Shown: positions 1 through 57,163 of the stretch, one piece after another
How positions within the stretch are numbered: position 1 is the first letter of the stretch
Layout of the letters: each line of letters starts with the position of its first letter
Origin: Myxococcota bacterium
Lineage (GTDB): Bacteria; Myxococcota_A; SURF-8
Direction of reading: 5' to 3'
DNA length: 64,000 nt
NCBI GenBank assembly: GCA_965140415.1
Contig: OZ223209.1
Location: forward strand, 2,816,001-2,880,000
Program-made: the position numbers and the translations under genes
The notes under the pieces: generated by a model
What the model was told of the DNA's origin: nothing
What the model saw: only the letters and a program-made list of their open reading frames with translations
The model's database searches: none

Positions 1-160
1 TTTTAATCAGCATAAGGGATTTGATATCGCGTGAAATCGTGGCTTGTGTGGTGTCGAAGCCTTGTTTCTTCAACGCATCCGCCAATTCGTTCTGGGTGCT
101 GACGCGCTTACTGGCGATCAATTCCAGAATGGCTTCTCGTCGTTTTCGAGTGTCAGACAT
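1..160 (-). CDS. argR: Arginine repressor, N-terminal part (runs off window edge)
   Basis: Not in the ORF track. Manual translation from ATG 160 gives [47 protein letters not shown], matching the ArgR winged-helix motif TQxEL...TQATISRD. Start overlaps the argE stop. Confidence 0.93.
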
Positions 161-1238
161 GATTCGACTCCGTACCGCTGTGATTGTTCAGGAATTGAGA
201 GGCGATTTGCAGATACGTTTGTGTGCCTGCTTCAAGTTCTTCTATGCTGATTCGTTCATCCGGCTGGTGGGAATATTTCGGATTTCCCGGTCCAAGCTTG
301 ATGGCGGAAATTCTCGCTTTTTGTAAAAACGCCCAGTCGCTGGCAGCATCGGAGGCGAATACTTTCTTTTGCGGCAGAGTCCTACGAGCCGCCATCGCAA
401 TCGGATGATCCGATGCCGTTTCACATGGAATCCAGTGATCAGAGCAAACGCTTATGTTTCCACTGACCACTCCCTGCAACAGCATCAGGATTTCCTCGTT
501 GCTGTAGGAGGGGGTCGTTCGAATATCCAATAACGCTTTGGCGTTTGGCGGAGTGACATTATCCGCCACTCCTGCAAGAATTCGGGTCGGTGTAACCCGG
601 ATCGTTCCAAGAGTTGGATGACTACGCTCGAAGGGAACCTTTTTCAAATTGATGAGATCGCCTGCCAGTAGATGAATCGCGTTGGTTCCGTTTTCACGGG
701 CCGCGTGTCCCTGTTTGCCGGAATTTGTCAGTTCTACAACCAGCAAGCCGCGCTGTGAAATGGCGATATCCAGGTTGGTTGGCTCGCCGACGACCGCGCC
801 CTGAAAGCTGCCCAGCTTTTTCAACAATCGGGGGAGGGAGGGGTCGTTGCCTTCTTCTCCGATGGAAAGCGCGACGACCAACTCGCCGCATTCAAAACCT
901 TGTTGCTGCAAAGCAGTTGTTGCGGCAAGCATGGCGGCGCAACTGCCACGCGCATCCACTGCGCCGCGTCCGTAGAGCCAGTCGTTTTCTAGAATTCCCT
1001 GCTGAGCAGGATACTTCCAACCTTCTCCTGCCGGAACCGTATCCAGGTGGGAGTTGAACAGCAGCCGAACCCCGGACTTTTCCCCTTTAATGGCAACCCA
1101 TATTCCATCTTCACAACGCTGACAGGGCAGACCGGCATCCGTACAGATGTCGTAAGCGGTTTGCAAAATCGCTTCTTCATGACCGGTTTCCCCCGAAACC
1201 GCAAGCAAACGCTGCAATATGGACAGGGTGTCAGGCAA
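153..1238 (-). CDS. argE: M20 family metallopeptidase, acetylornithine deacetylase-like
   Basis: NSHLDTV, GRGAVD, GEE, GEPT and C-terminal H metal-binding motifs; arg operon context. Confidence 0.8.
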
Positions 1239-2151
1239 GTTCCGTCTCCTGATAAACCTGTTTTTCGCGTTCTTCGACGATCATGGTGCCGCAGCCTTCG
1301 CCGGTGAACAGTTCGACCAGCAGAGAATCGGGAGTAAAGCCACCGATGATGTGCGTTCGTTTGACGCCCGACTGCACGGCTTTAAGGCAGGCGTCCAGTT
1401 TCGGTCGCATACCGGCGGAAACCGCACCGCTTTGCAGCAACTCATCCAAGTCCTGCTTGTCGGCAAAAGGAATGAGCGAACCGGGATCGTCCAGATTGGC
1501 GAAAAGGCCGCCGCTCTGAGTGATGAAGATCAGTTTCTTGGCTTGCATGGAAACGGCAACGGCTTTTGCGATGCTGTCTGCGTTGATATTAAGCACCTGG
1601 CCCGCTCCGTCACTGGAAAGGCAGGACAGCACCGGCACGTAGTCTTGATCGAGCAGTTGCGACAAGGTTTCAGTGTCCACGGAAACGATGTCCCCCACAA
1701 AACCGAAATCAACCGTTTTTGTATCGCCCTCATCGGTTTCAATGGAGACTGGAGGTCTTTTGCTTGCCAGGATCATATCGCCGTCCACACCGCTCAAGCC
1801 CACTGCCTTGCATTGCTGCTTTTGCAGGGAGACCGTCAGATCCAGGTTGAGTTGTCCGGCGTAGACCATTTTAACGACATCTAAAGTCCGCGCATCGGTT
1901 ACACGTCGACCGGCGACCATGACCGGCTCGATGCCGAGCTTACGGCTGATTTCACTGGCTTGCGGTCCACCGCCATGAACGACGACCACACGAATGCCGA
2001 GATCATTCAAAAGGGCGATCTGCTCTGCAAGATTGGTGACAGCGTCTGCATCGTTCAGAATCGCGCCACCGATTTTAATAACGAACGTCTGTTTTTTGTA
2101 ATGGCGAATGTACGTTCGTGCTTCCTTAAGTGAAATAATCGAAGGATTCAT
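1231..2151 (-). CDS. argB: Acetylglutamate kinase
   Basis: VIKIGG, VVHGGGPQ, GRRVTD, NINAD and GMRPKL motifs. Start set to ATG 2151, which follows a GAGGAG RBS. Confidence 0.93.
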   Translation of the reverse strand: MNPSIISLKEARTYIRHYKKQTFVIKIGGAILNDADAVTNLAEQIALLNDLGIRVVVVHGGGPQASEISRKLGIEPVMVAGRRVTDARTLDVVKMVYAGQLNLDLTVSLQKQQCKAVGLSGVDGDMILASKRPPVSIETDEGDTKTVDFGFVGDIVSVDTETLSQLLDQDYVPVLSCLSSDGAGQVLNINADSIAKAVAVSMQAKKLIFITQSGGLFANLDDPGSLIPFADKQDLDELLQSGAVSAGMRPKLDACLKAVQSGVKRTHIIGGFTPDSLLVELFTGEGCGTMIVEEREKQVYQETELA

Positions 2152-2158
2152 GTTCTCC

Positions 2159-3316
2159 TCATTCAAAACAACGTTGTAAGGCTTCAACAAACAGCAAGGC
2201 GTCTTTTTGAGACAGCACCAGTGGTGGCATCATACGGAAGATTTCGGGACGATTGCTGCTGCCGACGATGATGCGGTGTTTTTGCAGCAGGTGTTGTCGT
2301 ATGGGGCTGCTGTCTTCAAAGAGTTCCACGCCCAACAACAACCCACGACCATGCACCGCTTTGACTTTCGAAAGCTTTTTCAAGGCCGTTTTCAGTCGAT
2401 CGCCAACCGAACGGGCCTGCTCAAGAACGTTTTCTTTCTGGAGGATATCCAATGTTGCCAGCGCCGCCGCGCAAGCCAGGGGACCGCCACCGAACGTCGA
2501 GCCCAGCATCCCGCTTTTGACATGTTGGGTGATCGCTTCATTGGCGATTGTCGCTCCAACCGGAAAACCACCGGCCAGGCCCTTGGCCATGGTCAGAATA
2601 TCGGGAGTGACTCCGTATGCTTCGGCTGCCGTATAAAAGCCCATGCGACCCGCACCACACTGCACTTCATCGAAAATAAGAACGGAACCGGTTTCATCGC
2701 AACGCTTGCGCAACGCCTGGAGAAATTCCGGACTTGCATCGATTGCACCGGCCAGACCTTGCACCGGTTCGATGATGACGGCGGCGCAGTCGTCCGTGAC
2801 AATCTCGTTCAAATCCTGCGTTTGATTCATTTCAATCAGGCGAACGTGCGGAAAGAGAGCTTCTCCATTACAGGATGCAAGCTTGCGGTATTTTTCGATG
2901 CCTGAAACGGCCAGCGTGAGCAAGCTGCGACCATGGAAGCCGCCATGAATTGAAACGATGGTCTTGCGTCCGGTTGACAAGCGCGCCAGGGTCAAGGCGT
3001 TTTCATTCGCTTCCGCACCGCTGTTACACAAAAATACGGAAGCAAGTCCCTTCGGCATCCATTCGAGCAATCGCTCGGAAAGCCTCTGGCGCAGCGGATG
3101 ATCGGAAATATTGGAGTAAAAGATTAAGCGCTCGGCCTGCGCCGCGATGGCTTGTACCAGACGCGGGTGACAATGACCGACGGAGGCGACGGCGTGTCCG
3201 CCGTACAAGTCGAGATATTCGTTGCCGTCTTCGTCGATGACGGTGCAGCCCGTACCGGCAACCAACTTCATCGGTAGTTGCGGATAAACGGGCATTTGTG
3301 GAGCGGGACTTAACAT
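2159..3316 (-). CDS. argD: Acetylornithine aminotransferase (class III PLP)
   Basis: NSGAEANE, FHGRS, FDEVQCG, AKGLAGG and STFGG motifs. Confidence 0.9.
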   Translation of the reverse strand: MLSPAPQMPVYPQLPMKLVAGTGCTVIDEDGNEYLDLYGGHAVASVGHCHPRLVQAIAAQAERLIFYSNISDHPLRQRLSERLLEWMPKGLASVFLCNSGAEANENALTLARLSTGRKTIVSIHGGFHGRSLLTLAVSGIEKYRKLASCNGEALFPHVRLIEMNQTQDLNEIVTDDCAAVIIEPVQGLAGAIDASPEFLQALRKRCDETGSVLIFDEVQCGAGRMGFYTAAEAYGVTPDILTMAKGLAGGFPVGATIANEAITQHVKSGMLGSTFGGGPLACAAALATLDILQKENVLEQARSVGDRLKTALKKLSKVKAVHGRGLLLGVELFEDSSPIRQHLLQKHRIIVGSSNRPEIFRMMPPLVLSQKDALLFVEALQRCFE

Positions 3317-4350
3317 GGGTAGGCTCCTGTATGATGCAGCCCGGCGGTTTCGGAAAGACCGAGCATCAGGTTCATGTTCTGAATCGCCTGTCCGGCAGCG
3401 CCTTTGACGAGATTATCCAGAACAAGCGCGATTTCCACTTCATCGTTTTTCTGTGCCACGTGAATATGAACGTGGTTTGTGCCTGCAATCTCGGCCAGTT
3501 TTGGCGGCTGATCCAGGACATGAACGAAAGGCGCATTCTCGTTATAAAAGCGATTATATAAATCAGGAAGATCTACAGAAGTGATCTGTTCATTCTGAAG
3601 ATATGCCGTTGCGGCGATGCCGCGCACGAAAGGTCCGGAATGTGACAGCAAACGACTTTGAACGGTATGCCCTGCAATCCGGGAAAGCGTTTCGTTGATT
3701 TCCGGTTCGTGCTGGTGCGACAGCGTTTTGTAGGCATAGAAATTACCATCACGGAAGGGGTGGTGTGTTCCGATCTTTGGATGAATGCCGGAGCCGGATG
3801 AACCCGTTACTGCAAAGACGCCAACAGGAAACGAGAGCAGTCCTGCATTTGCCAAAGGCAATAACAGCAATTCTGCGGCGGTTGCAAAACAGCCGGGATT
3901 GGCGATGCGGGTTGTGGTTTCAATTTGCGGTTTAAAGGCTTCCGGCAGTCCATAAACGAAGGATTCCGTTAGTTCGAAGCAGTGATGTTCGCCGTAATTG
4001 TCTGCATATTCCTTTTGTGAGGAAAGCCTGAAATCGGCAGCCAGATCAATGATTTTTAAAGAGTCGTATGAAGTTAACTCCTTCATCAGTTTGTTGCTTT
4101 GACCATGCGGCATTGCCAGGAAAAGGACTTTGCATTGCTCTGCCAGTTGTGCCGGGTCAAGGTCGCGGAAGCAATCTTTTGTGAGATGACGCAAACTCGG
4201 ATGCACGCTGCATAAAGATGCGTTCGCGTGACTTCGGGAAATTGCCAGAACGTTTTCAACCTGTGGATGCTGATATAAAAGCCGAAGCAATTCTCCGCCT
4301 GCCAGTCCCCCTGCACCGATCACGCCTGCTGTAATCGTTGTTTCAGTCAC
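3310..4350 (-). CDS. argC: N-acetyl-gamma-glutamyl-phosphate reductase
   Basis: N-terminal Rossmann motif, IDLAADFRL, IANPGCF (catalytic Cys) and DNLVKGAAGQA. Confidence 0.95.
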   Translation of the reverse strand: MTETTITAGVIGAGGLAGGELLRLLYQHPQVENVLAISRSHANASLCSVHPSLRHLTKDCFRDLDPAQLAEQCKVLFLAMPHGQSNKLMKELTSYDSLKIIDLAADFRLSSQKEYADNYGEHHCFELTESFVYGLPEAFKPQIETTTRIANPGCFATAAELLLLPLANAGLLSFPVGVFAVTGSSGSGIHPKIGTHHPFRDGNFYAYKTLSHQHEPEINETLSRIAGHTVQSRLLSHSGPFVRGIAATAYLQNEQITSVDLPDLYNRFYNENAPFVHVLDQPPKLAEIAGTNHVHIHVAQKNDEVEIALVLDNLVKGAAGQAIQNMNLMLGLSETAGLHHTGAYPC

Positions 4351-5411
4351 AGCAGGGCCGCCTTTCTGGAATAGGCGTCCAGCACGATCTTGGATAATCC
4401 TTCGATATCCGAACGCGCGTTGTGCGCGGGGATACCCAACGAAGACGTGATGAAGTCACGACCTACCGCGTTGTCCGTCACGGGGCCGGTGAAGACATCG
4501 ACAGCCAGACCGAAGCTATTGTTGAATAGTTGTACTGCGCCAAAAGCTGCGACAGGGTCGGGAGCGCAAAGAACAAAACAGGCAGCGACGCTCATCAGTT
4601 GCTCATCGGACAAGATCTCCCGAACGCCGTATTGACCCAGGATGCCGTCGCCCAATTCGGCAACGATCAGATCCGGTGTTTCGCGAGCAAGTCTATTGAT
4701 CAGACCGCGCGCAATCGGAAGAATCATGTTGCCATTGGTGGAAACGACACCGGCATCGGTGAAGTCCATCACGGGGTCGGCTCCGGCATCGCCCATTGAA
4801 AGGATGTCGCGCATGAGGCTGACGCCGGTCAGTTTGACGGCGGCAACGCGCAAGCCTCGATGTGACAGGCGGCGCACGATTTCAGTTGCAGCCAGGGTCT
4901 TTCCGCTGTTCATGCTCGTTCCCGCCACGTAAATGATTGGCGGTGTGTTATCCAGCGTTTCGGCTGGTTGGATGTCGTTGGCGCTGATTGTGGCTGGCAC
5001 ACCCACACGATCTCCGATTTTTGGGAAGGCGAGCACGCTGCCAAGCACCTCGACATTAAAAGGATTTCCCAAGTCGGGATTGATAGCGGTGCATTTACCG
5101 ATGACGCCACCAAGGTTCAGAATTTGCAGCGTATCCCCAACGTTGACGGAAGAGGGGACCTGTCCTGCATAGCCTTGCAGCGCTTGTCTGGCTCCCAATA
5201 CACCGGCGACGATGTCTCCCTTGCGTATCTTGATCATACGTCCGGCATAGTTTTCGATGGTGTCGTATTGAAATTTCTGTGTGATTACGCGCACCGCGAC
5301 GATTGCGCCTTCGATGGCGGGGATTTCGTCTCCGATTACGGCGTTGTAATCCAGTTTCGCATTCCGTGTTGAAGAAGCGATTCGGTCAAGTTGTATTCGT
5401 CTCACATCCAT
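4347..5411 (-). CDS. DUF1611/DgcN-like P-loop-fold protein, first gene of arg operon
   Basis: VAGTSMNSGKT P-loop-like motif, KLTGV, DFTDAG and ELGDGILG. Stop overlaps the argC GTG start. Family assignment is from memory of motifs. Confidence 0.55.
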   Translation of the reverse strand: MDVRRIQLDRIASSTRNAKLDYNAVIGDEIPAIEGAIVAVRVITQKFQYDTIENYAGRMIKIRKGDIVAGVLGARQALQGYAGQVPSSVNVGDTLQILNLGGVIGKCTAINPDLGNPFNVEVLGSVLAFPKIGDRVGVPATISANDIQPAETLDNTPPIIYVAGTSMNSGKTLAATEIVRRLSHRGLRVAAVKLTGVSLMRDILSMGDAGADPVMDFTDAGVVSTNGNMILPIARGLINRLARETPDLIVAELGDGILGQYGVREILSDEQLMSVAACFVLCAPDPVAAFGAVQLFNNSFGLAVDVFTGPVTDNAVGRDFITSSLGIPAHNARSDIEGLSKIVLDAYSRKAALL

Positions 5412-5419
5412 GGTTCACC

Positions 5420-5464
5420 TGCATAACAATGCAATAAACAACGTAGAAGGTGCATGAATATGCA
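5420..5464. promoter_or_regulatory. Two ArgR operator (ARG box)-like palindromes
   Basis: TGCATAACAATGCA (5420-5433) and TGCATGAATATGCA (5451-5464), both TGCAT-N4-ATGCA, directly upstream of the operon. A TTGACT -35-like hexamer lies on the minus strand at 5483-5478. Confidence 0.75.
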
Positions 5465-5577
5465 GATTGCGCATAAAAGTCAAGGAATATTTCGTTCTAT
5501 TTCAGACTTTTTCGTGAGTTTTCGTAACTCTTGATTGCATGAAACGGTTTTTATAGGGTGGAAATTGCAAAAGCTTC

Positions 5578-5606
5578 TTGTTGGAATGATTCTTCTTGTC
5601 TATAAT
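5578..5606 (+). promoter_or_regulatory. Putative sigma70 promoter of the DUF819 gene
   Basis: TTGTTG-17 nt-TATAAT. Confidence 0.45.
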
Positions 5607-5726
5607 CCGGCAGGTTTACAGGCAGTACCCTGTCATACGTTCAAAAGACTGCTCACACGCAAACTGCAAGCCGTTTGGAAATTCCACCTGCGTTGGTAGT
5701 TCGTACAACCTCAGGAAAGGTAAAGG

Positions 5727-6863
5727 ATGTCCAACACGCCACTTTGGGCCATGTCGCTGCAAATCCTACTGTTATTGTTGTTGCCTGCGCTTGTTTTAAA
5801 GGCTGCAAAGCATCTGAAAATCGTACAACTTCTTTCTCCTGTGCTTGTGTGTTACCTAAGTGGAATTGCGCTGGCCAACCAGGAGACGATCCCTCTTTCA
5901 TTTGATATTGCCATGATCGTAAGAAATGCGACGGTGGCACTGGCTATCCCGTTACTGCTCTATTCGGTGGATATAATCGGCTGGTTGCGCTTGTCGAGGG
6001 CAACGGTGATCTCTTTTGCATTGTGTGTCTTCTCGGTGATGCTGACCAGTGCCATCAGTCATTTCATGTACCACGATACCTTCGATAACAGTGCGAAAAT
6101 CGCCGGAATGATGGTCGGTGTGTACACGGGCGGGACGCCGAACATGAACGCCATCGGCACTGCGCTGGGAATCGAGCCGGAAATGTTCATCGTGCTGGAA
6201 AGCGTGGACATGATTATGGGAGCGATGTACCTGATGTTCCTGCTATCTTTCGGCCCACGTCTTTTTGCGTATATATTGCCTCCATTCAAAAACGCACAAG
6301 GTGTTGAAAATGAACTGAACGATCAACTTCCGGTAAGTGAAGTCCTTTTCAAGCATGTCATGATTTCATTAGGATTGACGATCGTCGTCGTTGCATTGGG
6401 TGGCGGGCTTGGAATGCTGCTGCCGAAAACCTTTCAAGAGGCGGGTGCCATTCTCCTGATCACGACCTTCGCGATTATTTGTTCGCTTAATCCGAAAGTT
6501 CGCAACCTGAAAGGTTCACATGAATCGGGCATGTACGTCCTACTGATTTTCTGTGTTGCGGTAGGAAGTTGTGCTAAATTCGAAACTCTGGTCAACACCT
6601 CTCCGGCTATTTTCGGTTTCATCGGTTTCGCCATGTTCGGTGCCGTGGTTCTGCATCTGCTGCTTTCCAAATTGTTCAAAATCGATAGAGACACCGTGAT
6701 TATCACCTCGGCTGCTGGTATTTTCGGTCCGGCGTTTATCGGTCCGATTGCACAAGCGCTTAATAACAGGGAAATCTTTTTCAGTGGTATCGCAACCGGA
6801 TTGGTTGGCTATGCGATTGGAAATTATTTGGGGCTTGCGCTTGCCTGGATGTTGGGTGGTTAG
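5727..6863 (+). CDS. DUF819 family integral membrane protein
   Basis: About 11 TM segments, GVYTGGTPNM motif and C-terminal GLVGYAIGNYLG. Confidence 0.75.
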   Translation: MSNTPLWAMSLQILLLLLLPALVLKAAKHLKIVQLLSPVLVCYLSGIALANQETIPLSFDIAMIVRNATVALAIPLLLYSVDIIGWLRLSRATVISFALCVFSVMLTSAISHFMYHDTFDNSAKIAGMMVGVYTGGTPNMNAIGTALGIEPEMFIVLESVDMIMGAMYLMFLLSFGPRLFAYILPPFKNAQGVENELNDQLPVSEVLFKHVMISLGLTIVVVALGGGLGMLLPKTFQEAGAILLITTFAIICSLNPKVRNLKGSHESGMYVLLIFCVAVGSCAKFETLVNTSPAIFGFIGFAMFGAVVLHLLLSKLFKIDRDTVIITSAAGIFGPAFIGPIAQALNNREIFFSGIATGLVGYAIGNYLGLALAWMLGG

Positions 6864-6894: not shown

Positions 6895-8847
6895 TCAGTC
6901 GTGTTCGGCATTGCGCCCGATTGTTTTCAACACGATGGAAAACACAAACAAAGCAGCAGTGTAAGCAAACAATGGTTGCAACATGCTGGCTGGAAGATAT
7001 CCCAATAGGATGGCGCCGACTCCTACAACCAATGCATATGGCATCTGGGTGCGGACGTGGTCCAAGTGGTCGCAGGCGGCGGCGATGGAAGACATGATGG
7101 TGGTGTCCGATAGCGGGGAGCAGTGATCTCCGAAAATCGCTCCGTCCAGCACCGCGCCGATGCTGATGACCATCACCGGCATGCCGCCGACGTGAAAGGC
7201 CAGTGGTACGGCAGCGGGCAATAAGACCGCCATGGTTCCCCAGGAAGAACCGGTTGCAAACGAAATGAATGCTGCCAGAAGGAAGATCAGTACCGGTAAG
7301 ATCCAATTCGGTAGCGTATCCGCCAATAGGCTTACCATATACTGTCCTGTGCCGAGTTGGTTGTTGGCATCGCCGATAGCCCAGGCCAGAATCAGCACCG
7401 CGAATGCCAGTAACAGCACCCGCCAGGCACTCAGCCAGGCCCGAAGAAGTGTTGTAAATGGCGTTTTACCGGATGTCCAACCTAGTATAATCGCAAGAAA
7501 AGAACCGGCAAGAGAGGCCATCGCCAGAACCCAGCCCCCGTCTTGACTGGCAATAAGGTAATTGTCTTTGAGCGCAAATAATCTGGCGGTGTCGAATGTG
7601 CTCCAGGCAGCAGAATGAAGTCCATCCGGGCTGATAAGACCGGCTCCATTGAAGGCCATGCCTGATAACGTGATGAAAATAACAAGCAAAACCGGCAAGA
7701 TCGCGGTATGGGCGCGAGGTCGCCCTATGGCTTCAGGCGCTTGCGCTCCGGCTAACGGTGTGGAACCTTCTCGAAGTACTTCATTGTGTTTCCTCGCGCG
7801 GCGTTCGGCTTGCAGCATGGGACCGAAATCGCGACCCATACCGACCGATAAAAACAAAAAGATGAGTGCAAACAAGCAGTAAAAGCGATAGGGAAGGGTG
7901 GACAGGAACATGGCATAGGGTGAGCCATCCATGCCCAAGGTCTGCATGGCATCGCCGATCAAGCCGACTTCGTATCCGATCCAGGTGGAAATCAGCGCCA
8001 GCCCGGCGATGGGTGCGGCGGTGCTATCCACAAGATAGGCCAGTTTTTCCCTTGAGATCTGCGCCCGGTCGCTTAATGGGCGCATGGAACTGCCGACGAC
8101 CACGGTGTTGGAGTAATCATCAAAGAAAATCAGAACACCAAGCAGGGCAGTGGCCAGTTGGGTCGAGCGAGCATTTTTAGCGAATTTTCCCAATAGATCG
8201 GCCAGGCCGCGCATACCACCGGAAACCGTGCAGACATTGACCATGCCGATCAAGGCGAATGTAAACAGGAAAATGTAAAAGTGGAAGTCATCTACCATCA
8301 CATGATACAGAATCATCGCGCTTTGCGTGACAGCAGCCAGTGTTGGACCGGCAGCGCTGCCATCCCAGCCCAGCAGTAAACCTCCTATTACCACACCGAG
8401 AAACAAGCCTAAAAGCAACCTTCGTGTTGCAATGGCAATGGCAACCGCCAATAATGCAGGTAGCAGAGAATACCAGCCGATATGCAGGGCTTGCGCTGTT
8501 GCACTTGGAAGACCGTCGCCCTGGAGAGTTATCGATTGAATAAATCCTTTCTGACTGATTGACATGCTACAGGAGTCGATTTGCTTCTTTCCGTTGCCGA
8601 TTACCAAGGGACTTGGCAATCTTTGAGCGACAGAAAGCAGGGCCTCTCCCTGTACAACGAGATTACAGGTGAAGCTTGTGTCGTTTGAAATGGCTTCAAG
8701 TTGTTTTACGAGGTTTTGCTGTAGCCTGTTCGCTTCGAATTCGCTGATTCGATTCGAATTTACCGGAAGGCTGGAAAGCAGCAGCGCCAGAATGGAAATC
8801 AACAGAAACGCCAGTATCAATCGAATTCGGATCTTCATCGGTTTCAA
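6895..8847 (-). CDS. Na+/H+ antiporter NhaC family transporter with N-terminal extension
   Basis: IFFDDYSN, SREKLAYLVDSTAAP, SFATGSSWGT and GDHCSPLSDTTIMSS. Confidence 0.88.
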   Translation of the reverse strand: MKPMKIRIRLILAFLLISILALLLSSLPVNSNRISEFEANRLQQNLVKQLEAISNDTSFTCNLVVQGEALLSVAQRLPSPLVIGNGKKQIDSCSMSISQKGFIQSITLQGDGLPSATAQALHIGWYSLLPALLAVAIAIATRRLLLGLFLGVVIGGLLLGWDGSAAGPTLAAVTQSAMILYHVMVDDFHFYIFLFTFALIGMVNVCTVSGGMRGLADLLGKFAKNARSTQLATALLGVLIFFDDYSNTVVVGSSMRPLSDRAQISREKLAYLVDSTAAPIAGLALISTWIGYEVGLIGDAMQTLGMDGSPYAMFLSTLPYRFYCLFALIFLFLSVGMGRDFGPMLQAERRARKHNEVLREGSTPLAGAQAPEAIGRPRAHTAILPVLLVIFITLSGMAFNGAGLISPDGLHSAAWSTFDTARLFALKDNYLIASQDGGWVLAMASLAGSFLAIILGWTSGKTPFTTLLRAWLSAWRVLLLAFAVLILAWAIGDANNQLGTGQYMVSLLADTLPNWILPVLIFLLAAFISFATGSSWGTMAVLLPAAVPLAFHVGGMPVMVISIGAVLDGAIFGDHCSPLSDTTIMSSIAAACDHLDHVRTQMPYALVVGVGAILLGYLPASMLQPLFAYTAALFVFSIVLKTIGRNAEHD

Positions 8848-55354: not shown

Positions 55355-57163
55355 TTAACCGCAGAAGTCGCCGATGTAGCACATGGTGCTGTCGCCGACC
55401 GGACCGCAGCAGCCACCGCCGTAACCGGAGGCAGTACAGTCGCTGTCGCTCGTGCAGTCTCCCGCACACCAGGAAACACCGCAGTAACCTTCCACACACA
55501 CACCGCGGCTACCGACAACGGAGGCGCAGTCGGCTGCGGAAGTGCAGGGGGCAGGTTGGGAGGTGCTGGCATCGGCATGCATTCCAATGCAGTTCAGACC
55601 AGACTGACAGTTTCCGGCATCGGCATTGACCGAACCAAATGCACAGGCTTCACCCGCAGCCTGATCGCCAGTGCCACCACCACAGAAGTCTGCAATGTAA
55701 CACATGGTATCGCTTCCGACCGGGCCACAGCAACCACCGCCATAACCGGCAGCATTACAATCCGAATCGCTAGAACAGCTTTCAGCACACCAGGCAACAC
55801 CGCAGTAACCCTGAGCACATTCGCCACGGCTACCGACAACAGCGGTACAATCCGCGTCGCTGGTACAAGCTGCCGGTTGAGAAGTGGAAGCGTCGGCGTA
55901 CATGCCGATACAGCTCGCGCCGCTTTCGCAATCGCCGGCGTTGGCATTGACAACACCGAAGGTGCAGTCTTCACCAGGAGCCTGATCGCCAGTGCCGCCG
56001 CTACAGAAATCCGCGATGTAGCACATGTTGTCGCTTCCGACCGGACCACAGCAGCCACCGCCATAACCGGCAGCATTACAGTCCGCATCGGTCGTACAGC
56101 TTTCAGCACACCAAGAGACTCCACAGTAGCCTTGGGCACATTCGCCACGGCTACCGACAACGGCGGTGCAATCCGCATCGCTGGTGCAAGCTGCCGGTTG
56201 AGTGCTGGAAGCGTCGGCATACAGACCAATGCAGTTTCCGCCGCTTTCGCAATTGCCAGCATTGGCATTGACAACACCGAAGGTGCAGTCTTCACCAGGA
56301 GCCTGATCGCCAGTACCGCCGCTACAGAAGTCCGCGATGTAGCACATGTTCGTGTCGCCAACCGGACCACAACAGGCGCCATTTCCGAGCGCCGAGCAAT
56401 CGGCGTCCGTATTACAGGCCGCGGTGCACCAGGAAACGCCGCAATAACCCTGGGCGCAAACGCCCTGGCTGCCGACGACGGAAGTGCAATCCGAATCGGT
56501 CATACAAGGAGCGGGTTGGTCCGTGTTGGTATCCGCGTACATACCGATGCAGTCGTAACCAGATTGGCAATCACCGGCATTGGGATTGACTACGCCGAAC
56601 GTACAGGCACCACCCGGTTGTCCGGGATTGACAACGGTGTCTTCCACACAAGCGCCGTTTTCTTCATGATAACCATTGTCGCATTCGCAACGATTGGTCA
56701 TGGTGTTGCAATGCGCATGAAGTGGGCAGCCACCGCAAGGATCGCTGGTGTCGCCGTCGACCACGTTGTCGCCGTCAACTACATTGTCACCATCAACTAC
56801 ATTGTCACCGTCGACTACATTGTCACCATCAACGACATTGTCGCCGTCAACGACATTGTCGCCGTCAACTACGTTGTCGCCGTCAGTGGTGTTATCACCA
56901 TCAACAACGTTATCACCGTCAGTCGTGGTGTTGTCGCCGTCAGTCGTCGTGTTATCGCCGTCGGTCGTGGTGTTGTCGCCGTCTGTGATCGGCGGGTTAT
57001 ACGGATTGTTGGGGTTGTTGGGGTTGCTGGGACCGTCACCATCGGCGATTGTGGTATCACCATCGGTGTCATCGGTGTCTTCATCTTCGCCGCCGCAGCC
57101 GAAAGCAAACAGGGCTAAGATCAGCACTGCCAGCAAAAGAATAGAGTGCCATCTTTTTTCCAT
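55355..57163 (-). CDS. DGD-repeat lipoprotein with EGF-like module and four 14-Cys repeats
   Basis: Start MEKRW follows AAGGAGG; lipobox AFGC; (DGDNVV)n; about 107-aa repeats. Confidence 0.85.
   Translation of the reverse strand: MEKRWHSILLLAVLILALFAFGCGGEDEDTDDTDGDTTIADGDGPSNPNNPNNPYNPPITDGDNTTTDGDNTTTDGDNTTTDGDNVVDGDNTTDGDNVVDGDNVVDGDNVVDGDNVVDGDNVVDGDNVVDGDNVVDGDTSDPCGGCPLHAHCNTMTNRCECDNGYHEENGACVEDTVVNPGQPGGACTFGVVNPNAGDCQSGYDCIGMYADTNTDQPAPCMTDSDCTSVVGSQGVCAQGYCGVSWCTAACNTDADCSALGNGACCGPVGDTNMCYIADFCSGGTGDQAPGEDCTFGVVNANAGNCESGGNCIGLYADASSTQPAACTSDADCTAVVGSRGECAQGYCGVSWCAESCTTDADCNAAGYGGGCCGPVGSDNMCYIADFCSGGTGDQAPGEDCTFGVVNANAGDCESGASCIGMYADASTSQPAACTSDADCTAVVGSRGECAQGYCGVAWCAESCSSDSDCNAAGYGGGCCGPVGSDTMCYIADFCGGGTGDQAAGEACAFGSVNADAGNCQSGLNCIGMHADASTSQPAPCTSAADCASVVGSRGVCVEGYCGVSWCAGDCTSDSDCTASGYGGGCCGPVGDSTMCYIGDFCG

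Follow-up and report, generated by a model that had tools for sequence, protein, structure and literature searches.

Which enzyme carries out the first step of arginine synthesis, the N-acylation of L-glutamate, in a bacterium that seems to lack every enzyme known to do so? The question is raised by a stretch of 64,000 nucleotides from a Myxococcota bacterium (the window), which covers positions 2816001–2880000 of the single closed contig (OZ223209.1; 5,975,757 bases, 5.98 Mb) that makes up the genome. At the start of the window, on the minus strand, lies an arginine operon with the gene order X–argC–argD–argB–M20–argR–argG–argH, where X denotes the gene at 4347–5411 and M20 a gene for a metallo-deacylase. 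We predict that X makes N-acyl-L-glutamate, and thus probably replaces ArgA or ArgJ as a non-orthologous enzyme, because of three features of its comparative genomics: a hole in the pathway at step 1, conserved synteny with argC and a partition of genomes between X and the known synthases. A family of this description, that of ACG33_RS14135 from Steroidobacter, has been predicted as an alternative N-succinylglutamate synthase in a GapMind 2026 preprint (bioRxiv 10.1101/2024.10.14.618325).

All steps of the arginine pathway other than the first are accounted for in the genome. Searches of the whole genome did not find ArgJ or the NAT domain (PF04768), and the model for classical ArgA returned a match of its kinase part to argB alone. 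Two models for short GNAT-type N-acetylglutamate synthases (NAGS), S-NAGS among them, fell well short of their cut-offs, with best scores of 46.7 bits (cut-off 154) and 36.8 bits (cut-off 180). An ArgA or ArgJ gene just past the edge of the window was considered and rejected, as argR, argG and argH lie there with no other pathway gene. A LysW-type carrier pathway was rejected too: LysW was not found in the genome, and the overlapping genes of the operon leave no space for a small open reading frame. The only arginine-type carbamoyltransferase in the genome is a canonical ornithine carbamoyltransferase (OTC; NF001986, 411.8 bits against a cut-off of 306), encoded next to a carbamate kinase, so the pathway must run through free ornithine. 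ArgF' was not found in the genome, where the two other carbamoyltransferase matches are PyrB and a YgeW-type enzyme. The latter, a knotted carbamoyltransferase (682.6 bits; region of contig positions 2930761–2931516), has neighbours that encode a protein like a xanthine dehydrogenase subunit and one like cysteine synthase.

The best match to the short NAGS models is a GNAT protein of 165 aa (contig positions 1830558–1831055). It was considered as the synthase and is not favoured, being a weak, generic match (47 bits against 154) with homologues in just three of the five closest X-bearing genomes, at 37–39% identity; X is present in all five at 58–63% identity. The surrounding locus (contig positions 1829338–1836995) holds the sole OTC of the genome beside the carbamate kinase (TIGR00746, 360 bits). 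A 444-aa protein with only a weak CobW/HypB/UreG P-loop match also adjoins the OTC, and an M20D amidohydrolase (CpsA/DoeB-like) lies with the small GNAT on the other strand, 2.4 kb from the OTC.

The linkage of X to arginine genes extends well beyond this genome. In 32 of the 34 loci with a strong X homologue the gene directly after X is argC, a count in which two loci (L005 and L014) have an identical X and amount to one genome's worth, and in which several others are close kin. The adjacency holds for all 11 loci from the window's phylum, for seven of eight named records from several phyla and for 14 of 15 further strong matches from two phyla. One of the two exceptions places X between argR and an ArgF' gene (L046). 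In the other (L021, a named Alphaproteobacteria metagenome-assembled genome record; 41% identity), the homologue stands outside any arg context and is coupled to a 629-aa protein and a glycosyltransferase. At that locus (positions 1502–5577) the start of the X homologue overlaps the end of the 629-aa protein, to which no Pfam family matches; the next genes encode a family-2 glycosyltransferase and a PMT_2 protein. The X family seems to have a second use besides arginine. The four closest relatives all share the eight-gene operon, with argR undetected in one of them, and all four have an M20 homologue (47–54% identity) in the same position. An M20 gene is missing from the locus in about half of those X operons that have long flanks.

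Five weaker matches to X (28–34% identity; L040–L044, from genomes G194, G157, G248, G017 and G084) have no arg neighbours. These proteins align from about residue 50, their genomes have ArgA and/or ArgJ or else no ArgC, and they are a paralogous subfamily of X. A further subgroup, at 33–36% identity, heads a minimal X–argC–argD–argB cluster in four genomes (L036–L039, from G267, G243, G188 and G255), with a short ArgB of 275 aa and neither an M20 nor a carbamoyltransferase gene in the locus. Three of these genomes (G267, G243 and G188), together with two other X genomes that lack an in-operon M20, have only distant M20 homologues elsewhere (28–31% identity). In one X operon (L050, positions 2192–3526, genome G205) a gene of the methionine gamma-lyase/cystathionine gamma-synthase family sits between argD and the ArgF' gene.

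The distribution of X across genomes is consistent with a role as the missing synthase. A first census searched 151 genomes of the window's phylum for X, ArgJ, ArgA, the NAT domain and ArgC, which gave 35, 77, 11, 24 and 120 matches, respectively. The X matches fall into 31 at E ≤ 1.8e-56 and four at E 4.0e-28 to 2.2e-35, the latter all from one genus. The 120 ArgC-positive genomes divide exactly into 89 with ArgJ, ArgA or NAT and 31 with a strong X, without overlap and without remainder. In the 31 ArgC-negative genomes X is never found and ArgJ is found once. One genome of this phylum, G132, has ArgJ and no ArgC at E ≤ 1e-30. The four genomes with a weak X carry both ArgA and ArgJ, and the two such loci examined (L043 and L044) are without arg neighbours. 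Genomes that combine a fused ArgB-NAT synthase, ArgF' and an M20 deacylase (L059 and L060) lack X, suggesting that X goes with the missing synthase rather than with the deacylase.

A second census covered 121 genomes of a second phylum around genome G152, its counts taking in G179 and G204, which are unpublished. Of the 121, 62 have ArgC, among which 28 have X (E ≤ 6.0e-49) and 26 have ArgJ, again with no genome having both. Seven of the remaining eight have LysW, mostly within a few kilobases of the ArgC match, and one is unexplained: G237 has ArgC and ArgB, yet none of X, ArgJ, ArgA, NAT and LysW. The original prediction, made from the sequence alone, had proposed X as a step-1 enzyme, had seen no argA or argJ in the window and had named as a check whether homologues stand by arg genes in genomes without argA or argJ. 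It is supported, by computation, on each of these points. No argA, argJ or GNAT-type NAGS scores over its cut-off in the whole genome. The evidence that it named as contrary, an argA or argJ in the operon or genome and homologues unlinked to arg genes, was looked for and is absent among the strong homologues, 32 of 34 of which adjoin argC. X and argA/argJ are mutually exclusive in 31 of 31 cases among the 151 genomes, as are X and ArgJ in 28 of 28 cases among the 121.

What kind of protein is X? It belongs to no curated family. Pfam DUF1611 (PF07755) matches residues 157–194 only, at 19.1 bits against a cut-off of 25 (19.8 bits, also under the cut-off, in the genome-wide search), and MobB (TIGR00176) reaches 24.8 bits against 76.2. 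No BioD family model is among the NCBIfam matches, and neither Pfam nor NCBIfam detects a GNAT or ArgJ domain. Homologues are abundant: of 8,000 candidates scored, more than 3,600 reach E ≤ 0.001, and the top 120 are 55–76% identical. An exhaustive search at this threshold yielded 1,418 cluster representatives. Those with names among the matches listed are called ‘hypothetical protein’ throughout, while automatic atlas names include ‘DUF1611 domain-containing protein’.

The structure of X was modelled with AlphaFold2 at high confidence (pLDDT 97.2) and consists of an all-beta N-terminal domain (residues approx. 1–150) and a C-terminal alpha/beta P-loop domain of the BioD/DUF1611 type (approx. 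150–354). Structural comparison of the C-terminal domain yielded the DUF1611 proteins 2g0t_B (Z 17.0, root-mean-square deviation 2.9, 181 residues aligned) and 2obn_A (Z 15.9), the dethiobiotin synthetases 3of5_B and 1a82_A (Z 15.6 and 15.4), the CTP synthase 7dpt_A (Z 15.2) and the N-acetyltransferase DgcN, 7xrj_A (Z 15.1, root-mean-square deviation 3.0, 185 aligned). Further matches were formyl-tetrahydrofolate (formyl-THF) synthetase (Z 12.9) and HypB and UreG (Z 12.5–14.4). The top Foldseek match is dethiobiotin synthetase 1dae (E 2.7e-6), 7xrj is not among the 50 Foldseek matches listed, and a PDB profile search gave a local P-loop match alone (E 1.6e-4). When hhalign was used to compare the X family with bona fide DUF1611 proteins, four from the same phylum, the match had a probability of 96% (E 4.4e-9, 173 columns) and spanned the P-loop domain alone, and the structural alignments to 2g0t, 2obn and 7xrj, at approximately 181–189 residues, are the size of the C-terminal domain. 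The N-terminal domain, folded alone, has a pLDDT of 88.3. None of 48,161 PDB chains matched it at Z 5, the best being the LexA C-terminal domain (Z 4.2, 70 aligned), and Foldseek gave no match at E ≤ 0.001, although a lack of matches is no proof of a new fold.

The Walker A loop of X reads G-T-S-M-N-S-G170-K171-T172 and its second motif E252-L-G-D-G. In an alignment of 65 diverse homologues P86, G170, K171 and K193 are invariant, while T172, E252, G254 and others are conserved in at least 90%. K193 aligns with the lysine of the K-P motif in dethiobiotin synthetase (profile alignment to 3fgn), which we take to be the catalytic lysine of BioD; there is no lysine at this position in the alignment of bona fide DUF1611 proteins. 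X thus resembles BioD in its fold, in a Walker A loop of the form G-T-x-x-x-x-G-K-T and in a conserved lysine after strand 2, and differs from it in having an extra N-terminal domain of 150 residues and in its arginine, rather than biotin, context. With DgcN and DUF1611 proteins it shares a homologous P-loop domain, the GTxxxxGK[T/R] loop, a second motif of the E-G-x-G type and, as proposed for X, the N-acylation of glutamate. It departs from DUF1611 proteins in its unrelated, all-beta N-terminal domain and in K193. DgcN acts on D-glutamate in catabolism, whereas X is proposed to act on L-glutamate in arginine synthesis, and the true DUF1611 genes here adjoin racemase- or epimerase-like genes (as judged from N-terminal sequences), not arg genes. 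X and DUF1611 are distinct families, because a genome of the same order (G018) carries both X and a true DUF1611 protein. The P-loop fold first proposed for X agrees with Foldseek and with the structure and profile comparisons to DgcN and DUF1611. Its description as DUF1611/DgcN-like stands as remote homology of the P-loop domain, seen by hhalign and in structure, and falls as family membership (19.1 bits against 25): X is a remote relative of the DUF1611/DgcN family and not a member of it.

We turn now to the acyl group that X may transfer. Some X operons encode a carbamoyltransferase of their own, and all seven of these that were scored pass the cut-off for N-acetylornithine carbamoyltransferase (326.7–461.9 bits against 288) and fail those for OTC. 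Measured against a reference glutamate, that of the P-E-E-H stretch in the ArgF' of a NAT-type genome without X, the X-linked ArgF' proteins have Ala in seven cases, Val in five, Thr in two and Pro in one, with no Glu among the 15; two further alignments stop short of the position. We presume this column to be position 92, going by the numbering of the enzyme and the description in the preprint. There the choice between acetyl- and succinylornithine is ascribed to position 92, and A, P, S or V occupies it in 90% of 70 ArgF' proteins of this kind (bioRxiv 10.1101/2024.10.14.618325). In a maximum-likelihood tree of 38 X sequences, rooted at the midpoint only, the window's clade (seven rows, none with an in-operon ArgF') has support of 99/97; its sister group (95/94) takes in the Val-type operons L015 and L019, whose X proteins are 57–58% identical to that of the window. 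The acyl group in the window's clade is thus probably succinyl rather than acetyl, given that X-linked ArgF' proteins carry the succinylornithine-type residue and that the tree nests the X proteins of the window's clade within those of such operons.

It is possible, if somewhat doubtful, that X makes N-acetyl-L-glutamate here and that the operon encodes a linear acetyl pathway of the classical kind in which the synthase is unusual. The genome has a canonical OTC and no ArgF', its argB and argC pass the equivalog cut-offs of acetyl-pathway models, and the related enzyme DgcN transfers acetyl according to the title of the 7xrj entry. The ArgB and ArgC models do not discriminate between the two groups, however, because succinyl-type pathway enzymes match them as well, and an acetyl pathway sits poorly with the closeness of the window's X to that of Val-type operons and with its place among X proteins whose ArgF' neighbours have A, V, T or P, residues that the preprint, where it treats this site, ties to succinylornithine. 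In the original prediction X was a candidate N-acetylglutamate synthase that may replace ArgA by acylating L-glutamate. The step-1 role is retained here, while acetyl is the less likely group, as the ArgF' proteins of relatives point to succinyl.

As for the acyl donor, X may draw on an acyl-CoA whose phosphates would be bound by the P-loop. We regard the balance of chances for this as about even, with the rest divided between a ligase and, for the remainder, X not being the synthase or some other reading. This donor is favoured because DgcN is the closest relative with a characterised activity; DgcN uses acetyl-CoA. Alternatively, X could conceivably be an ATP-dependent ligase of the BioD, CTP synthase or formyl-THF synthetase type that would convert a free acid to an acyl-phosphate and from this acylate the amino group of glutamate. 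Succinate or acetate released by the M20 deacylase would then be reattached, in a CoA-independent, ATP-driven protecting-group cycle. X retains the full BioD-type set of residues (G170, K171 and K193, with T172, E252 and G254), including the lysine that true DUF1611 proteins lack, and BioD, CTP synthase and formyl-THF synthetase are all among its structural matches, with BioD ranked first by Foldseek. We nevertheless consider a ligase unlikely, as DgcN is described as an acetyltransferase (7xrj entry title) and P-loops can also bind the phosphates of CoA.

Two further explanations would remove X from the synthesis of N-acylglutamate de novo. If X were an accessory or regulatory NTPase, one that partners ArgC, say, or that supplies metal to the M20 enzyme as a chaperone, then N-acylglutamate would have to come from an unrecognised GNAT elsewhere. 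The SIMIBI class of P-loop proteins does include metallochaperones, HypB and UreG are among the structural matches, X adjoins argC and not argB, and the GNAT near argF is weakly like short NAGS models and lies beside an M20D amidohydrolase. This explanation is nonetheless very improbable: genomes with a known synthase and an M20 deacylase never carry X, an M20 gene is missing from approximately half of the X loci with long flanks, the GNAT is less widely kept and less conserved than X in the closest genomes, and the first step would stay unexplained in all 31 + 28 X genomes. An ArgJ-like transacylase, which would return the acyl group from acylornithine (or acylcitrulline) to glutamate, is hardly credible either. 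It would fit the mutual exclusion of X and ArgJ and the five X genomes that lack an in-operon M20 and have just distant M20 homologues, and the ArgB of the window has an N-terminal extension (its domain begins at residue 35), a feature typical of arginine-sensitive kinases in recycling pathways. The dedicated M20 deacylase in the operon of the window and in the four closest relatives fits a linear pathway instead; recycling would still require a priming synthase, of which none was found in the genome; and in ArgF'-type operons the acyl group is kept until citrulline.

Several observations weigh against X as a dedicated N-acylglutamate synthase and against the succinyl assignment. One possible synthase is the generic 165-aa GNAT encoded 2.4 kb from argF on the opposite strand. 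X is in no curated acyltransferase family and its Pfam DUF1611 match is sub-threshold, while its Z scores to DUF1611 proteins, BioD and CTP synthase are tied within approximately 2 units. Distant homologues (28–41% identity; L021 and L040–L044) stand outside arg operons, so the family is not bound to arginine throughout. The boundary between strong and weak X matches was set after viewing the lists of E-values (gaps of 1.8e-56 to 2.2e-35 and of 6.0e-49 to 1.6e-31 in the two censuses), all of the evidence is comparative, and kin genomes are not independent of one another. The nature of the acyl group is unreadable from this genome itself, which has no ArgF'.

How does X compare with the known synthases? 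ArgA, ArgJ, ArgB-NAT fusions, S-NAGS, C-NAGS, ArgO and the GNAT-type ArgA2 of Bacteroidetes occupy the same place in the pathway, and across genomes X takes their place one for one. ArgH(A) is a further short synthase of the GNAT type. The known N-acylglutamate synthases have either the GNAT fold or that of ArgJ (Ntn/DmpA-type), and X has neither. Lists of synthase types in the relevant passages of PMC3827942, PMC9026213 and PMC7311316 include none with a P-loop fold. Our search of the literature found no P-loop or DUF1611 N-acylglutamate synthase other than that of the preprint (bioRxiv 10.1101/2024.10.14.618325). The passages of the preprint on this family reach the prediction from independent data and without experiment, arguing from the neighbouring genes, from the lack of co-occurrence with ArgA, from a weak match of 7XRJ in Foldseek and from the residue in ArgF'; they describe the genes as nearly always in arg operons with argB, argC, argD, argG, argH and argR, and sometimes argE. 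These features are reproduced for X and its homologues, namely arg operons, ArgA exclusion, likeness to DgcN and, if the column is indeed position 92, a residue other than Glu in the ArgF' of relatives. We equate X with the ACG33_RS14135 (A0A127FCT3) family by matching descriptions only, and no named Steroidobacter is among the best 120 X homologues listed in either of two homologue searches. The gene clusters described in those passages contain ArgF', whereas the window's clade has none and instead has a canonical OTC elsewhere in the genome and an M20 deacylase in the operon.

The operon itself is compact. X (354 aa) has an ATG start at 5411, preceded 5 nt upstream by AGGTGA, and is the first gene of the operon because its upstream neighbour, a gene for a DUF819 membrane protein (5727–6863), is on the opposite strand. 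Its TGA stop (4349–4347) shares the tetranucleotide GTGA, a 4-nt overlap, with the GTG start (4350–4348) of argC (3310–4350; TIGR01850, 331 bits against a cut-off of 233.6). There follow, all on the minus strand, argD (2159–3316), a class III aminotransferase taken to be the N-acylornithine aminotransferase (Pfam Aminotran_3, 335 bits; best NCBIfam matches NF002874 and TIGR00707, at 373 and 358 bits, both under their own cut-offs), and the N-acylglutamate kinase gene argB (1231–2190; TIGR00761, 224 bits against 151.3). ArgB is listed at 319 aa with an uncertain start and has its kinase domain at residues 35–281; it has no fused acetyltransferase domain, the ArgA model covering the kinase part alone (positions 5–288 of 429). 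The M20 metallo-deacylase (153–1238; Pfam Peptidase_M20 and M20_dimer) is ArgE/DapE/LysK-like and presumably an N-acylornithine deacylase, its best NCBIfam match, TIGR01910 (144.7 bits), being under the cut-off. The 5' part of argR occupies 1–160, where the gene leaves the window; beyond the edge lie the rest of argR (145 aa in full), argG (426 aa), argH (458 aa) and then unrelated genes. From X to argR within the window each gene overlaps the next, by 4 to 32 nt as listed. Both the gene order and the GTGA overlap agree with the initial view of the open reading frame as heading the operon in translational coupling with argC, and the family matches agree with its reading of the genes that follow argC as argD, argB, an argE-like gene and argR.

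In the pathway that we propose, X would acylate L-glutamate on nitrogen to give N-acyl-L-glutamate, the first committed intermediate, which ArgB, ArgC and ArgD would convert to N-acylornithine. The in-operon M20 hydrolase would then strip the acyl group from N-acylornithine, and the canonical OTC encoded elsewhere, followed by ArgG and ArgH, would complete the pathway. ArgR, from the same operon, would repress it via two palindromes.

These palindromes lie between X and the divergent gene upstream and resemble ARG boxes, with TGCAT half-sites that we take to be a valid variant. The distal one, TGCATATTCATGCA on the minus strand (5464–5451), and the proximal one, TGCATTGTTATGCA on the same strand (5433–5420), both fit TGCAT-N4-ATGCA exactly, have A/T-rich centres and are 31 bp apart from centre to centre. 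The proximal palindrome ends at the ribosome-binding site AGGTGA (5420–5415). The distal one overlaps a −10-like TATTCA (5460–5455) that lies 17 nt after TTGACT (5483–5478) on visual reading; a promoter scan of 5380–5760 accepted no sigma-70-type site, the TTGACT/TATTCA pair included. Exact copies of TGCAT-N4-ATGCA number 12 in the 5.98 Mb genome, against approximately five expected from base composition, and those before X are the sole pair within 60 bp genome-wide, in agreement with the two ARG-box palindromes seen at the outset. An exact box is also found 18–25 bp upstream of the X start in two of 12 related loci scanned (L003 and L004), with no box at up to one mismatch in the other 10. 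With argR inside the operon, autoregulated repression by arginine is the natural reading, in which ArgR would bind both palindromes as putative operators over the promoter and ribosome-binding-site region.

Other copies of the palindrome were also noted. Three exact sites fall within 1 kb at contig positions 1870919–1871889, two of them identical (TGCATCGGTATGCA), and look like repeated sequence rather than operators. Within the window, an exact TGCATTCCAATGCA at 55568–55591 lies 10 bp from a copy with one mismatch. Beyond the DUF819 gene, which is on the plus strand and divergent from the arg operon, a gene on the minus strand (6895–8847) encodes a 650-aa protein of a Na+/H+ antiporter family with a weak match to the arginine/ornithine antiporter ArcD (43 bits). 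These two proteins may be transporters tied to arginine or ornithine.

A step-1 role for such a family has already been predicted in print (bioRxiv 10.1101/2024.10.14.618325), and the present analysis is a corroboration that also sharpens the question to one of acyl-CoA or ATP. To that prediction it adds an exact phyletic partition that takes in the ArgJ, NAT-domain and LysW systems, a description of X as a two-domain protein with a BioD-like lysine, and a clade that appears to run the X pathway through free ornithine, with an in-operon deacylase, an ordinary OTC and putative control by ArgR. The first step is the most variable of arginine synthesis and a frequent gap in the prediction of arginine prototrophy from genomes. 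X would fill that gap in 31 of 120 ArgC-containing genomes of one phylum and 28 of 62 of another, and has named homologues in several further phyla. Were it to prove a ligase, the CoA-independent, ATP-driven cycle would be a variant of the pathway so far undescribed. If the step-1 role is correct, the first step would be carried out by an enzyme with a nucleotide-binding fold in place of an acetyltransferase fold, and many false calls of arginine auxotrophy would be corrected.

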